Assembly: GCF_003334785.1 (NCBI RefSeq)
Contig: NZ_QOWV01000001.1
Length of the DNA stretch: 64,000 nucleotides
Reading direction: 5' to 3' (one strand)
Origin: Escherichia coli
GTDB taxonomy: Bacteria > Pseudomonadota > Gammaproteobacteria > Enterobacterales > Enterobacteriaceae
Shown piece by piece: positions 39,206 through 43,006 of the stretch (position 1 is its first letter; each line of letters opens with the position of its first letter). The position numbers and the translations under genes were made by a program. Below the pieces are notes generated by a model. It was not told the DNA's origin. It ran no database searches and worked only from the letters and a program-made list of their open reading frames with translations.

Positions 39206-39565
39206 GTGGCAGAAGAAACTATATTCAGCAAAATTATTCGTCGTGAGATCCCCTCCGATATCGTCTACCAGGATGATCTGGTAACGGCGTTTCGCGATAT
39301 TTCGCCGCAAGCGCCAACGCATATTCTGATCATTCCGAATATCCTCATTCCGACTGTGAACGACGTCTCAGCTGAGCATGAGCAGGCGCTGGGACGCATG
39401 ATCACCGTAGCGGCAAAAATTGCTGAGCAAGAAGGTATTGCCGAAGATGGCTATCGTCTGATCATGAATACCAACCGCCATGGCGGACAAGAGGTTTACC
39501 ACATCCATATGCACTTGTTGGGTGGCCGTCCGCTGGGACCAATGCTGGCGCATAAAGGTCTGTAA
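39206..39565 (+). CDS. hinT: HIT-family purine nucleoside phosphoramidase HinT (119 aa, GTG start)
   Basis: GTG at 39206 gives (M)[44 protein letters not shown]... with the HIHMHLL histidine triad, 119 aa as recalled for HinT; the ATG at 39188 gives a 6-aa longer form. Confidence 0.88.
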
Positions 39566-39567
39566 CG

Positions 39568-39945
39568 ATGAGAAAAGGATGCTTTGGGCTGGTGTCTCTG
39601 GTGTTGTTACTGCTGGTGGGCTGTCGTTCACATCCGGAAATTCCGGTGAATGATGAGCAATCGCTGGTGATGGAGTCATCTTTATTGGCTGCGGGCATCA
39701 GTGCAGAAAAGCCCTTCCTTTCGACGTCTGATATTCAACCTTCAGCATCCTCAACGCTTTATAACGAAAGGCAAGAACCCGTTACCGTTCATTATCGTTT
39801 TTACTGGTATGACGCCAGAGGGCTGGAGATGCATCCTCTGGAAAGGCCACGCAGCGTTACCATTCCCGCACATTCGGCGGTAACGCTGTACGGCAGCGCC
39901 AATTTTCTGGGGGCGCACAAAGTCAGACTTTATCTATATTTGTAA
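39568..39945 (+). CDS. ycfL: Lipoprotein YcfL (125 aa)
   Basis: MRKGCFGLVSLVLLLLVGCRSHPEIPV... (lipobox LVGC); starts 2 nt after hinT; matches recalled YcfL. Confidence 0.9.
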   Translation: MRKGCFGLVSLVLLLLVGCRSHPEIPVNDEQSLVMESSLLAAGISAEKPFLSTSDIQPSASSTLYNERQEPVTVHYRFYWYDARGLEMHPLERPRSVTIPAHSAVTLYGSANFLGAHKVRLYLYL

Positions 39946-39958
39946 GGGGTGAATCTTG

Positions 39959-40600
39959 ATGACAAAAATGAGTCGCTACGCCTTGATTACCGCGCTGGCG
40001 ATGTTTCTCGCCGGGTGTGTGGGGCAACGTGAACCTGCACCGGTAGAAGAAGTGAAACCAGCGCCGGAACAACCAGCCGAGCCACAACAGCCTGTCCCCA
40101 CAGTGCCCTCGGTGCCGACGATCCCGCAGCAGCCAGGCCCAATTGAGCACGAAGATCAAACTGCACCGCCTGCGCCGCATATTCGCCATTATGACTGGAA
40201 TGGCGCAATGCAGCCGATGGTCAGTAAGATGCTTGGGGCTGACGGGGTGACTGCGGGTAGCGTCCTGCTGGTTGATAGCGTTAACAACCGTACTAACGGT
40301 TCGCTGAATGCCGCAGAAGCGACCGAAACGCTGCGAAATGCGCTGGCTAATAACGGGAAATTTACCCTGGTTTCCGCCCAGCAACTGTCGATGGCGAAGC
40401 AACAGTTAGGTTTGTCGCCGCAGGACAGTTTAGGCACCCGTAGTAAAGCCATAGGCATTGCCCGCAATGTCGGCGCTCATTACGTGCTGTACTCCAGCGC
40501 CTCTGGCAACGTTAACGCTCCGACCCTACAAATGCAGCTGATGCTGGTGCAGACGGGCGAAATTATCTGGTCAGGTAAAGGTGCCGTTTCGCAGCAATAA
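39959..40600 (+). CDS. lpoB: Outer-membrane lipoprotein activator of PBP1B, LpoB (213 aa)
   Basis: [50 protein letters not shown]... (lipobox, Pro-rich linker); matches recalled LpoB (YcfM). Confidence 0.92.
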
Positions 40601-41405
40601 TCCCATCACGCGCGACGAATTGCTGTCGCGCTTTTTCCCGCAGTATCATCCCGTCACGACGTTTAATAGTGGGCTTAGTGGCGGGAGTTTTCTCATTGAA
40701 CATCAGGGCCAGCGTTTTGTTGTGCGTCAGCCGCACGATCCTGATGCGCCGCAGTCCGCGTTCTTGCGCCAGTATCGGGCTTTATCACAACTACCCGCAT
40801 GCATTGCACCGAAGCCGCATTTATATCTCCGTGACTGGATGGTAGTCGACTATCTGCCCGGCGCGGTAAAAACGTATTTGCCGGATACCAACGAACTGGC
40901 AGGCTTGCTGTATTATCTACATCAACAACCACGTTTTGGCTGGCGAATAACGCTGTTGCCGTTACTGGAACTGTACTGGCAGCAAAGCGATCCGGCGCGG
41001 CGGACAGTGGGTTGGCTGCGAATGTTAAAACGTCTGCGCAAAGCGCGGGAACCACGGCCTTTACGCTTAAGTCCATTGCATATGGATGTCCACGCCGGAA
41101 ATTTAGTGCATAGCGCGTCAGGGTTAAAACTCATCGACTGGGAGTATGCCGGAGATGGTGATATCGCGCTGGAACTGGCGGCGGTGTGGGTGGAAAATAC
41201 TGAACAGCACCGGCAATTGGTCAATGACTATGCCACTCGCGCGAAGATTTATCCGGCGCAATTATGGCGTCAGGTCAGGCGATGGTTTCCCTGGCTGCTG
41301 ATGCTCAAAGCAGGGTGGTTTGAGTACCGCTGGCGACAAACCGGCGATCAACAATTTATCAGGCTGGCCGATGACACCTGGCGGCAGCTATTAATAAAAC
41401 AATAA
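40581..41405 (+). CDS. thiK: Thiamine kinase ThiK (274 aa)
   Basis: [53 protein letters not shown]...; 20-nt overlap with the end of lpoB; matches recalled ThiK (YcfN). Confidence 0.92.
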
Positions 41406-41415
41406 GGAGAGCAGT

Positions 41416-42441
41416 GTGGGTCCAGTAATGTTGGATGTCGAAGGTTACGAACTGGACGCGGAAGAGCGTGAAATACTGGCGCATCCGCTGGTGGGAGGGC
41501 TGATTCTCTTTACGCGTAACTATCATGATCCTGCCCAGTTACGTGAACTGGTGCGCCAGATCCGCGCAGCTTCGCGCAATCGTCTGGTGGTGGCGGTTGA
41601 TCAGGAAGGTGGACGCGTGCAGCGTTTTCGTGAAGGTTTTACCCGCTTGCCAGCGGCGCAATCATTCGCTGCGCTGTCAGGAATGGAAGAGGGTGGCAAA
41701 CTGGCGCAGGAGGCAGGTTGGTTGATGGCCAGCGAAATGATCGCTATGGATATTGATATCAGCTTTGCGCCTGTGCTGGATGTCGGGCATATCAGCGCGG
41801 CGATTGGCGAGCGTTCTTATCATGCCGATCCACAAAAAGCCCTGGCAATTGCCAGCCGGTTTATTGATGGTATGCATGAAGCCGGAATGAAAACGACCGG
41901 GAAACACTTCCCAGGACACGGTGCAGTAACGGCAGACTCACACAAAGAAACACCGTGCGATCCACGTCCACAAGCGGAGATTCGCGCTAAAGATATGTCG
42001 GTCTTCAGTTCCTTAATCCGCGAAAATAAACTCGACGCCATTATGCCTGCGCATGTGATCTACAGTGATGTTGATCCGCGTCCGGCGAGCGGTTCTCCCT
42101 ACTGGCTGAAAACCGTTTTGCGTCAGGAACTGGGTTTTGACGGCGTGATTTTCTCTGACGATTTATCGATGGAAGGTGCCGCGATTATGGGCAGTTATGC
42201 CGAACGCGGGCAGGCTTCACTGGATGCGGGTTGCGATATGATCCTGGTCTGCAATAATCGTAAAGGGGCCGTCAGCGTGTTAGATAATCTGTCACCGATC
42301 AAGGCAGAACGTGTTACACGTTTGTATCATAAAGGTTCATTTTCGCGACAGGAACTGATGGACTCGGCTCGCTGGAAAGCGATCAGCACCCGTCTGAATC
42401 AGTTACATGAACGCTGGCAGGAAGAGAAAGCAGGTCACTAA
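41416..42441 (+). CDS. nagZ: Beta-N-acetylhexosaminidase NagZ (341 aa)
   Basis: [71 protein letters not shown]...; GH3 family; matches recalled NagZ. Confidence 0.95.
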
Positions 42442-42463
42442 CCCTGGCTTATGTGAGGAAGCG

Positions 42464-43006
42464 ATGATTATCTATTTACACGGTTTTGACTCTAACAGTC
42501 CGGGTAACCACGAGAAAGTCTTACAATTGCAGTTTATTGACCCGGATGTACGCTTGATAAGCTACAGTACGCGGCATCCGAAACATGATATGCAGCATCT
42601 GCTTAAAGAAGTGGACAAAATGTTGCAACTGAACGTTGACGAGCGTCCGCTAATTTGCGGCGTTGGCTTGGGCGGATACTGGGCGGAACGGATTGGTTTT
42701 CTTTGCGACATCCGCCAGGTGATCTTCAACCCTAATTTGTTCCCTTATGAGAACATGGAAGGCAAGATTGATCGCCCGGAAGAGTATGCCGATATTGCCA
42801 CTAAGTGTGTGACCAACTTCCGTGAGAAGAATCGCGATCGTTGCCTGGTGATTTTGTCGCGTAATGATGAAGCGCTTAACAGCCAGCGGACATCTGAAGA
42901 GTTGCATCATTATTACGAGATTGTCTGGGACGAAGAGCAGACGCACAAATTCAAGAATATCTCCCCGCATTTACAGCGCATTAAAGCGTTCAAAACCCTC
43001 GGGTAA
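42464..43006 (+). CDS. ycfP: Alpha/beta-hydrolase-fold protein YcfP (180 aa)
   Basis: Start at [24 protein letters not shown] gives 180 aa, matching recalled YcfP; the six-frame ORF extends 19 codons upstream. Confidence 0.88.

Follow-up and report, generated by a model that had tools for sequence, protein, structure and literature searches.

Unequal expression within operons is set by internal attenuating terminators, such as the one in rpsU-dnaG-rpoD, and by stabilising stem-loops, such as the REP elements between malE and malF. The hinT–ycfP operon of Escherichia coli analyzed here resembles these systems in that a structured element appears to lie between abundant upstream and scarcer downstream products, with nested transcripts, but it differs from them in that the element lies within a reading frame, its stems being formed by codons that include those of the glycine-rich loop of a kinase.

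A class of Rho-dependent transcripts with precise 3' ends just past stable stem-loops, which lack U-tracts and protect these ends, and with Rho utilisation sites immediately downstream is described in the abstract of Dar and Sorek 2018 (PMC6061677). The present locus shares with the class 3' ends that lie 3–7 nt past the stems, bicyclomycin-sensitive read-through, and a lack of U-tracts in most species; an unstructured and mildly C-rich stretch after the stems is a candidate for the Rho utilisation site. Unlike in the class as presented there, the stems are located inside a translated frame (thiK codons 10–36) in the middle of the operon and not past its last gene, and both of them carry short U-tracts in E. 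coli proper.

Overlapping gene pairs translated by termination-reinitiation have also been described (Huber et al. 2019, PMC6728339; PMC10666635). Like these pairs, lpoB and thiK are co-directional, their overlap falls in the more frequent of the possible phases (-8, -11, -14 ... -20), and the downstream gene has a weak Shine-Dalgarno (SD) sequence. Typical coupled pairs, however, overlap by 4 or 1 nt, whereas lpoB and thiK overlap by 20 nt, and long overlaps are about 4-fold rarer. The coat and lysis genes of phage fr, with an overlap of 34 nt, are cited in PMC10666635 as a case where reinitiation at an upstream start is known; for lpoB/thiK, coupling is only putative.

Gene order and conservation of the operon

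The window, a stretch of 64,000 nt from an E. coli contig (NZ_QOWV01000001.1), carries the following six genes.

39206..39565, + strand: hinT, purine nucleoside phosphoramidase, GTG start (NCBIfam NF007965, 264 bits; ORF list, annotation)
39568..39945, + strand: ycfL, putative lipoprotein of the YcfL family, 2 nt past hinT (ORF list, annotation)
39959..40600, + strand: lpoB, lipoprotein activator of PBP1B (TIGR02722, 218 bits; ORF list, annotation)
40581..41405, + strand: thiK, thiamine kinase, GTG start (NF007620, 554 bits, residues 1–274; annotation)
41416..42441, + strand: nagZ, beta-N-acetylhexosaminidase, GTG start, own AAGGAG SD sequence (ORF list, sequence, annotation, NCBIfam)
42464..43006, + strand: ycfP, alpha/beta hydrolase YcfP (ORF list, annotation, NCBIfam)

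An earlier note on this DNA had listed these genes as co-directional, with inter-gene gaps of 2, 13, -20, 10, and 22 nt. Their positions, direction, and gaps were confirmed by the ORF list, the sequence, and the RefSeq annotation of K-12 W3110, which has the matching six CDS with equal spacing. The products of hinT, lpoB, thiK, nagZ, and ycfP each scored above the curated cut-off of NCBIfam equivalog models; no NCBIfam model matched ycfL, and the assignment to Pfam PF07233 (DUF1425) comes solely from the ycfL counterpart genes of related loci. The operon DNA is 100% identical to that of E. coli K-12, and every one of the 5426 complete E. coli genomes contains it. This part of the window and the K-12 hinT–ycfP operon represent the same locus, alike in sequence, genes, order, and spacing, with no difference between them. 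For comparison, we used 81 loci (80 Enterobacteriaceae species and K-12), and the six-gene order was common to all 80 species examined.

The six genes have been named as one operon (PMC4974736, PMC3130732, PMC11731830), and its status in the literature that we found is that of a prediction ('in silico', PMC3130732). The lpoB/thiK overlap and the internal 3' ends are not discussed there. The observation in the earlier note repeats what is annotated for a textbook genome and is ordinary in itself.

The lpoB/thiK overlap and the start of thiK

The junction between lpoB and thiK contains two features.

40581..40600, + strand: 20-nt lpoB/thiK overlap, the thiK frame being the lpoB frame +1 (conserved across loci)
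40573..40576, + strand: AGGT, weak SD-like motif 4 nt 5' of the thiK GTG, in lpoB Ser205–Gly206 (sequence reading)

The GTG start, which is located 17 nt 5' of the lpoB stop codon and places the pair in the long-overlap class, and the 20-nt overlap were found at one position in 80 of the 81 Enterobacteriaceae loci, most of which have no alternative upstream in-frame start for thiK. Overlaps of 17–23 nt in the equal relative frame were called in six more distant loci, including those of Erwinia and Symbiopectobacterium, and the thiK start in distant families (these two, and others) is ATG or GTG. The earlier note had named loss of the overlap in closely related genomes as evidence against its reading; the overlap is real and is kept in relatives.

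Long overlaps often result from mis-called starts, and K-12 has an in-frame TTG at thiK codon 14. An overlap that is an annotation artefact, with the true start of thiK further downstream, is nevertheless extremely improbable. Besides the constant position of the GTG and the ATG or GTG of the distant families, many species are devoid of the downstream TTG. In the ThiK protein alignment, the N-terminal column holds Met without exception and residues 10–20 (TRDxxLSRYFP) are conserved at the protein level, and the alignment to NF007620 begins at ThiK residue 1. The suppression of synonymous variation in lpoB 5' of the start also fits a ribosome-binding site.

In the overlap, lpoB had a third-position identity of 0.81; for the six codons (18 nt) before the GTG the value was 0.86, compared with 0.65 in the remaining C-terminal domain. 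The synonymous-codon entropy of codons 203–208 was 0.10–0.79 against a gene mean of 1.18, the value of 0.10 belonging to Gly208 (GGT). At the level of sequence, a dual-frame or ribosome-binding-site constraint is visible at the 3' end of lpoB, in agreement with the earlier claim that two reading frames constrain this end. The results showed that both the order of the genes and the overlap of lpoB with thiK are of ancient origin and have been kept by selection, and they provide a worked example of a 20-nt overlap that can be genuine and stable across Enterobacteriaceae and beyond.

A 6-bp hairpin over the thiK SD sequence (40563–40578) was 93% paired, with covariation not above that of shuffles. 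Frameshifting (+1) from lpoB into thiK was dropped as a candidate, since CAA UAA U gives no slippery re-pairing. A search for a solved ThiK structure, which could have served to check the N-terminus, found none, and N-terminal or initiation-profiling results for thiK were likewise looked for and not found.

Coupling had been suggested for the whole operon. However, nagZ, ycfP, and lpoB each have a good SD sequence of their own, and spacings like +10, +13, and +22 are ascribed to independent initiation (PMC10666635). Judged from these spacings and SD sequences, hinT>ycfL and lpoB>thiK are the only junctions at which coupling is plausible.

Two conserved hairpins at the beginning of thiK

Two stem-loops are located within the first 106 nt of thiK and are conserved across Enterobacteriaceae. 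They are listed together with the hairpin that ends the operon.

40610..40631, + strand: hairpin 1, 8-bp stem GCGCGACG/TGTCGCGC with a 6-nt loop, thiK codons 10–17, then TTTTTCC (folding, 81-sequence alignment)
40649..40686, + strand: hairpin 2, long imperfect stem-loop, thiK codons ~23–36, then AGTTTTCTC (per-species folding, z-score scan, arm swap)
43018..43047, + strand: operon-ending hairpin GCATCAGGTA...TACCTGATGC, without a U-tract (PMC10687069; structure scan)

Hairpin 1 begins 9 nt past the lpoB stop codon (6–9 nt in the 81 loci). Alone, it has an energy of -14.1 kcal/mol, and six of its eight pairs are G-C. Across the 81 sequences, 97% of its cells were paired, compared with 14–57% in slid controls. 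At two third positions, where the exchange is synonymous, the pair switches between CG and UA; U.G occurs as an intermediate and C.A does not occur. The pair 63–78, for instance, is CG in 41 sequences, UA in 34, and UG in 6, and C.A in none. The columns of hairpin 1 show at least four independent changes each on the tree, and Lelliottia has two more compensatory pairs, which change amino acids.

Hairpin 2, the 3' arm of which encodes the glycine-rich loop GLSGGS, has an energy of about -18 kcal/mol and a mean z-score of -3.56, with z<-1.5 in 88% of 77 species. It was the single internal outlier of the whole-operon structure scan and equals the terminal hairpin, which has a mean z-score of -3.9 and is present in 92% of species. 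In an arm-swap test, the energy was -25.9 kcal/mol with the own arm vs -20.4 kcal/mol with foreign arms, indicating that the arms co-evolve. In the K-12 register, hairpin 2 was 86% paired. Its column-wise covariation is modest, and RNAalifold on the MAFFT alignment gave no consensus for hairpin 2; both results are due to a pairing register that differs by one codon from clade to clade.

Part of the sequence of both stems is dictated by amino acids that are conserved (TRD..LSR and GLSGG, respectively). The 101-nt junction as a whole did not fold better than shuffles (z 0.31), and only the local stems stand out.

RNA 3' ends and probable Rho-dependent termination

Published RNA 3' ends and Rho data were placed on the window after the offset between U00096.3 and window coordinates had been verified on the row of the thrL attenuator.

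40632..40641, + strand: RNA 3'-terminus peak, dominant at 40634 (U00096.3 1163313), 'lpoB, alternative primary in TU' (PMC10687069 Supplementary Data 3, LB RNAtag-seq)
40693, + strand: second RNA 3' terminus (1163372), signal 0.76 (PMC10687069)
40720..40839, + strand: least structured, mildly C>G stretch past hairpin 2, candidate Rho loading region (skew, folding)
41088, + strand: highest Rho score inside thiK (U00096.3 1163767; PMC7815308 Supplementary file 2)

Besides the primary 3' end of the operon at 43054, internal 3' ends have been reported at 39756 and 39897, both in ycfL, and at the two positions listed above (PMC10687069). The latter two, which are steady-state ends in E. coli, lie 3 and 7 nt past hairpins 1 and 2, respectively, that at 40634 falling on the third U of the hairpin 1 tail. 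The TRS signals of the hairpin 3' ends are 0.46 and 0.76 (ranks 2059 and 1096). Adams et al. 2021 call no 3' end at either hairpin in their Term-seq lists ('lpoB', 0 occurrences), and for this reason the ends are considered to be of modest abundance.

The Rho score at 41088 is 3.16 (p 1e-7); it is computed over 800-nt windows and describes a region. Within the 800 nt on either side of this position, coverage upstream and downstream is 182 and 51 in untreated cells, and 96 and 85 with bicyclomycin (PMC7815308). Coverage across mid-thiK thus drops about 3.6-fold, and the drop is bicyclomycin-sensitive. The stretch 40720–40839 has a GC skew of -0.17, which is a weak C>G bias, and a mean minimum free energy of -11 to -12 kcal/mol across species. 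The regional Rho score is compatible with hairpin-proximal ends that derive from Rho-terminated RNA, but it does not prove such an origin.

Taken with the conservation of the stems, these data make it fairly probable that a shorter hinT-ycfL-lpoB message owes its stability or its 3' end to the hairpins and that the weakly initiated thiK is exposed to Rho. Translation of thiK would rely on a ribosome-binding site that is weak and perhaps also on ribosomes completing lpoB. Because thiK is poorly initiated, Rho would end a large share of the transcripts inside it, and 3'-to-5' exonucleases would trim the terminated RNAs as far as the two hairpins. Some intrinsic termination may contribute in E. 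coli proper, where the hairpins have U-tracts. The outcome would be a stable short hinT-ycfL-lpoB message and a rarer full-length message ending at the similar hairpin past ycfP, and expression of the upstream genes would thereby be set higher than that of thiK-nagZ-ycfP.

The two stems could instead be intrinsic (Rho-independent) partial terminators, i.e. an attenuator at which a constant share of the polymerases would stop after lpoB, with no role for Rho or exonucleases. The G+C-rich stem-loop of an intrinsic terminator is present, and hairpin 1 of K-12, with its TTTTTCC tail and the 3' end within it, was the best terminator-like site of the consensus scan. Hairpin 2 is followed by AGUUUUCUC in K-12, and more distant Enterobacterales have a different strong hairpin at the equivalent place, with UUUUCAUUU or UUGUUUUUCU after it. 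A U-tract is, however, not conserved alongside the stem in most genera: within Enterobacteriaceae, the tail of hairpin 1 is UAUUUCC in most species and GAAUUCC in Kluyvera, as against five U in K-12, and outside Escherichia the sequence after hairpin 2 is GCUGCAUC. Since the coverage drop in thiK is also bicyclomycin-sensitive and the terminal hairpin is equally conserved and likewise without a U-tract, we find this explanation unlikely.

It is very unlikely that the hairpins serve translation, either by blocking the ribosome that ends lpoB and so favouring a new start at the GTG, which lies 17 nt further upstream, or by throttling early elongation on thiK, with ThiK being kept scarce. The narrow stop-to-stem spacing, the fixed overlap length, and the weak SD sequence and GTG start, which suggest that thiK depends on lpoB ribosomes, would suit such a role, and the phage fr pair, as cited in PMC10666635, offers a precedent for upstream-start reinitiation. 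The stems, however, begin at +30 of thiK, beyond the footprint of an initiating ribosome, and the small hairpin over the SD sequence shows no covariation beyond that of shuffles. A function in translation would also leave unexplained both the RNA 3' ends directly past the two stems and the likeness of hairpin 2 to the terminal hairpin in strength and conservation.

The earlier note had read the close packing as a single transcript, a reading that internal promoters and terminators would weaken. One part of it stands: the genes form a known, conserved co-directional cluster. The other part is contradicted to some extent by the four published internal 3' ends and the Rho region around 41088. One uniform polycistronic mRNA with coupling throughout, in which the hairpins and 3' ends are incidental decay intermediates without a selected role, would agree with the tight spacing, the universal synteny, and the treatment of the operon as a single unit in papers. 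Promoter- and terminator-like consensus matches were also no commoner than in shuffled sequence (5 vs 5.8 expected, and 8 vs 5.3, respectively). Yet the stems show compensatory changes and conservation at synonymous sites, and their structure z-scores are at the level of a terminator. Together with the internal 3' termini and the Rho region, this makes a uniform mRNA a very improbable explanation. Tight spacing is not equivalent to one uniform transcript, and a conserved break point is located directly past lpoB.

Implications of the hairpins

The two hairpins are structured RNA elements that lie hidden within a gene and have no counterpart in Rfam, and they could explain how more LpoB than ThiK is produced from one promoter. 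If lpoB or thiK is deleted in the Keio manner, the element would be lost or left exposed, which matters for engineering of the operon and for gene deletions in it. The additions made by this follow-up are modest and open no new field.

A further reading, which we put forward with considerable doubt, is that the hairpins constitute a translation-gated attenuator made of codons that can fold only when no ribosome occupies thiK codons 10–36. The evidence on the hairpins covers conservation, position, and RNA ends and says nothing about gating, which is conjecture. If it were true, the rate of restart at the GTG after lpoB would decide whether the transcript ends or continues into thiK-nagZ-ycfP, and the expression of NagZ, which acts in peptidoglycan recycling, would be tied to the translation of LpoB, an activator of peptidoglycan synthesis. 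Such a device would have been kept across Enterobacterales while the actual stems turned over.

Other sequence signals

Rfam covariance models (E<=1) run on 36000–46000 gave no match inside the operon, including 40550–40720. The only matches in this range were to the REP-like naRNA4, located after ycfP. A TPP riboswitch, considered because thiK is a thiamine gene, was rejected for lack of an Rfam match, and no lpoB-derived small RNAs were found in the RIL-seq papers. Only the hairpin 1 match of the consensus promoter and terminator scan proved meaningful. A numeric search of the Cappable-seq start-site tables gave no match. Upstream of hinT, there is a consensus promoter match at 39110–39139, and nagZ-ycfP may have start sites of their own.

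The hinT–ycfP gene cluster

The six co-directional genes claimed in the earlier note, separated by 2, 13, −20, 10, and 22 nt, were confirmed by the ORF list and the sequence:

39206–39565, + strand: hinT, GTG start
39568–39945, + strand: ycfL
39959–40600, + strand: lpoB
40581–41405, + strand: thiK, GTG start
41416–42441, + strand: nagZ, GTG start
42464–43006, + strand: ycfP

The RefSeq annotation contained the same six CDS with identical boundaries, and the stretch was 100% identical to that of E. coli K-12 W3110 and was found in 5426 of the 5426 complete E. coli genomes searched. 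Five of the six gene names passed the curated cut-offs of NCBIfam equivalog models; ycfL had no NCBIfam model, and its counterpart in related loci is Pfam DUF1425. Papers name the cluster as one operon (PMC4974736, PMC3130732, PMC11731830), in one case, on in silico grounds, as an 'apparent operon' (PMC3130732), and the finding as first put forward is already known.

A one-genome-per-species scan with ThiK alignment yielded 80 Enterobacteriaceae loci, all of which (80/80) retained the six-gene order, mostly with ndh next. With K-12 counted, the thiK GTG at the same position and the 20-nt overlap with lpoB were present in 80 of 81 loci. The lone exception was Enterobacter sp. ENT03 (L039), where GCA replaces the GTG (junction ~3989–4008); with the TTG found 6 nt further on as the start, the overlap would shrink to 14 nt. 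Hairpin 1, described below, was intact in this locus. Unlike lpoB/thiK, the four remaining junctions differed among species:

hinT–ycfL: −1 to 5 nt
ycfL–lpoB: −4 to 63 nt
thiK–nagZ: −13 to 42 nt
nagZ–ycfP: 20 to 118 nt

The thiK stop lay 13 nt inside nagZ in eight loci (L033, L034, L040, L042, L047, L051, L060, and L077; Kluyvera, Pseudocitrobacter, and other genera), a second overlap of the operon that is absent in E. coli.

ThiK identity outside the Escherichia group was 57–72%, against 86–98% for HinT, NagZ, and YcfP, and the mean amino-acid column entropy was 1.09 for ThiK versus 0.20–0.32 for its neighbours. ThiK is thus evolving much faster than these neighbours, and the overlap is kept although the ThiK sequence itself diverges fast. 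In six more distant loci with ThiK 36–47% identical (including Erwinia sp. HR93, Symbiopectobacterium, and metagenome contigs), the called genes overlapped by 20, 23, 23, 20, 17, and 17 nt, all congruent to 2 modulo 3 and therefore in the same relative frame. Three loci had an eroded cluster: the kinase gene directly followed hinT in L085 (metagenome contig), ycfL was gone and nagZ fragmented in L089 (metagenome contig), and nagZ was missing in L087 (Symbiopectobacterium). According to PMC10666635, overlaps as long as −10 to −60 nt are about fourfold less common than those of the −4/−1/−8 class, and the −20 of lpoB/thiK falls in the commoner phase (−8, −11, −14, and so on).

Dual-frame constraint in the overlap

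Within the overlap, lpoB third positions are thiK second positions, and thiK third positions are lpoB first positions. The dual-frame constraint proposed earlier was measurable, as lpoB third-position identity was 0.81 in the overlap versus 0.65 in the C-terminal domain. The outcome was asymmetric: the LpoB tail GKGAV(Q/S)QQ was retained and ThiK residues 2–8 were variable, residue 2 being P, Q, L, or R depending on which base fills the unconstrained third position of lpoB Ala209.

Third-position identity reached 0.86 across the six lpoB codons preceding the thiK GTG, and synonymous-codon entropy was 0.43 at Ile203, 0.79 at Ser205, 0.43 at Gly206, 0.39 at Lys207, and 0.10 at Gly208 (gene mean 1.18). 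This low-entropy stretch contains AGGT, a weak Shine–Dalgarno-like motif 4 nt before the GTG. A small hairpin able to mask AGGT was 93% paired, with no covariation.

Conserved hairpins within thiK

Two stem-loops were found in the 5' part of thiK:

40610–40631, + strand: hairpin 1, 9 nt past the lpoB stop, thiK codons 10–17
40649–40686 (K-12), + strand: hairpin 2, longer, thiK codons ~23–36, present in every species

Hairpin 1 was matched in a terminator scan as GCGCGACGAATTGCTGTCGCGC followed by TTTTTCC, and was seen in both minimum-free-energy and centroid folds. Its 8-bp helix had 97% of cells paired over the 81 sequences, compared with 14–57% when the partner was slid by 1–3 columns. Pair 63–78 of this alignment (A2) links synonymous third positions, Arg11 CGY with Ser16 TCR, and was C–G in 41 sequences, U–A in 34, U–G in 6, and C·A in none; both columns changed at least four times on a neighbour-joining tree built from hinT, nagZ, and ycfP. 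Wherever ThiK residue 10 was Thr, its codon was ACG, and the loop was hypervariable. In Lelliottia (GCGCGAAA...TTTCGCGC), two further compensatory pairs altered the amino acids.

We scanned the whole operon with sliding 60-nt folds in 77 species (12 dinucleotide shuffles per window). The mean z fell below −3 at two places only, hairpin 2 (−3.56; z < −1.5 in 88% of species) and the hairpin directly after the ycfP stop (−3.9; 92% of species); hairpin 1 came next (about −1.7). A stem near the ycfL 3' end (CAGCGTTACC...GGTAACGCTG, ~39848–39897, −20.7 kcal/mol; published RNA terminus at 39897) showed only partial conservation, its mean z being −1.2 and its z falling under −1.5 in 39% of species.

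Shifts of the pairing register among clades made RNAalifold fail on hairpin 2; with the K-12 register applied, 86% of cells paired (37–62% when slid). We therefore compared duplexes by arm swapping: the own 3' arm gave a mean of −25.9 kcal/mol versus −20.4 kcal/mol for foreign-clade arms, and in 77 of 80 species it paired more strongly than foreign arms did on average. The results showed that the arms co-evolve, which speaks against the alternative that the hairpins lack any selected role. As an example, GGCGGGAG pairs with CUCCCGUCGCC; in Enterobacter the arms are GGCGCGAG (G-A-S) and CUUAUCGCGCC (L-I-A-P). The 3' arm of hairpin 2 codes for the glycine-rich loop GLSGGS. The distant loci had a different strong hairpin in the same neighbourhood (CCGGCGG...CCGCCGG type, coding for F-P-A-A-x-x-A-G), present in five of six and degraded in L089, the locus without ycfL and with a broken nagZ.

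RNA 3' ends and Rho

A TRS study of E. coli in LB at exponential phase (PMC10687069, Supplementary Data 3) reports + strand 3' termini, which we placed by an offset of 1,122,679 from U00096.3, checked against the thrL attenuator row of its table:

1162435 (window 39756), + strand: within ycfL
1162576 (window 39897), + strand: past the hairpin close to the ycfL end
1163313 (window 40634), + strand: third U behind hairpin 1, 'lpoB, alternative primary in TU'
1163372 (window 40693), + strand: behind hairpin 2
1165733 (window 43054), + strand: behind the terminal hairpin

The end at 39756 was found in two independent studies (1162434, 1162435); it had no stable hairpin (−3.2 kcal/mol), and therefore more likely reflects processing than termination.

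Adams et al. 2021 (PMC7815308) report a Rho termination region within thiK at 1163767 (window 41088; Rho score 3.16, p 1e-7), where upstream/downstream coverage in 800-nt flanks was 182/51 without and 96/85 with bicyclomycin. The ends of hairpins 1 and 2 were absent from the Term-seq lists of that study, and are therefore not among the strongest. The stretch after hairpin 2 (40720–40839) was the least structured of the scan and mildly C>G, which is weakly compatible with Rho loading. The earlier reading was half right: the operon stands, as does a genuine overlap under constraint, and translational coupling is plausible, but a single uniform transcript is not supported, given the internal 3' ends and the bicyclomycin-sensitive fall in coverage within thiK.

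Stable stems were followed by precise 3' ends, with Rho-sensitive read-through further downstream and U-tracts that were not conserved. Pure intrinsic attenuation, a rival reading, would fit the U-tracts in K-12 and the U-rich tails in distant taxa. The thiK pattern is the one that Dar and Sorek (PMC6061677) describe for Rho-dependent transcripts shielded against 3' exonucleases, and the operon's own terminal hairpin, an internal comparison, behaves alike. We therefore favour a model of two messages. A stable hinT–ycfL–lpoB RNA would stop at the hairpins, a less abundant full-length RNA would run on past them, and weak initiation at the overlapped GTG may expose thiK RNA to Rho. Beside the conservation, compensatory changes, mapped ends, and bicyclomycin effect that are shown, we infer this causal chain and any protein-level effect. 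A role of the hairpins in thiK reinitiation is a rival to the two-message model. The coding-embedded conserved hairpins that follow lpoB add a small new detail of a familiar type, meriting one annotation line and little more.

Region after ycfP

A further Rho region lies past ycfP at 1165914 (window 43235; PMC7815308). REP/BIME-like palindromic units at 43063–43131 (both strands) and 44716–44753 (− strand) matched Rfam naRNA4 (RF02564) with 56.5 and 52.5 bits, just under the gathering score of 59.5, and a second published 'ycfP primary' 3' end (1165777, window 43098) lies inside such units. The ycfP–ndh interval at 43080–43199 was strongly C-rich and G-poor (GC skew down to −0.65), and the ndh 5' UTR had a published 3' end at 1166023 (window ~43344). 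A promoter-like site in nagZ (42231–42258; TTGCGA, 16 nt, TG, AATAAT; extended −10), ~200 nt ahead of ycfP, matched the consensus alone, and such matches were as frequent as expected by chance.
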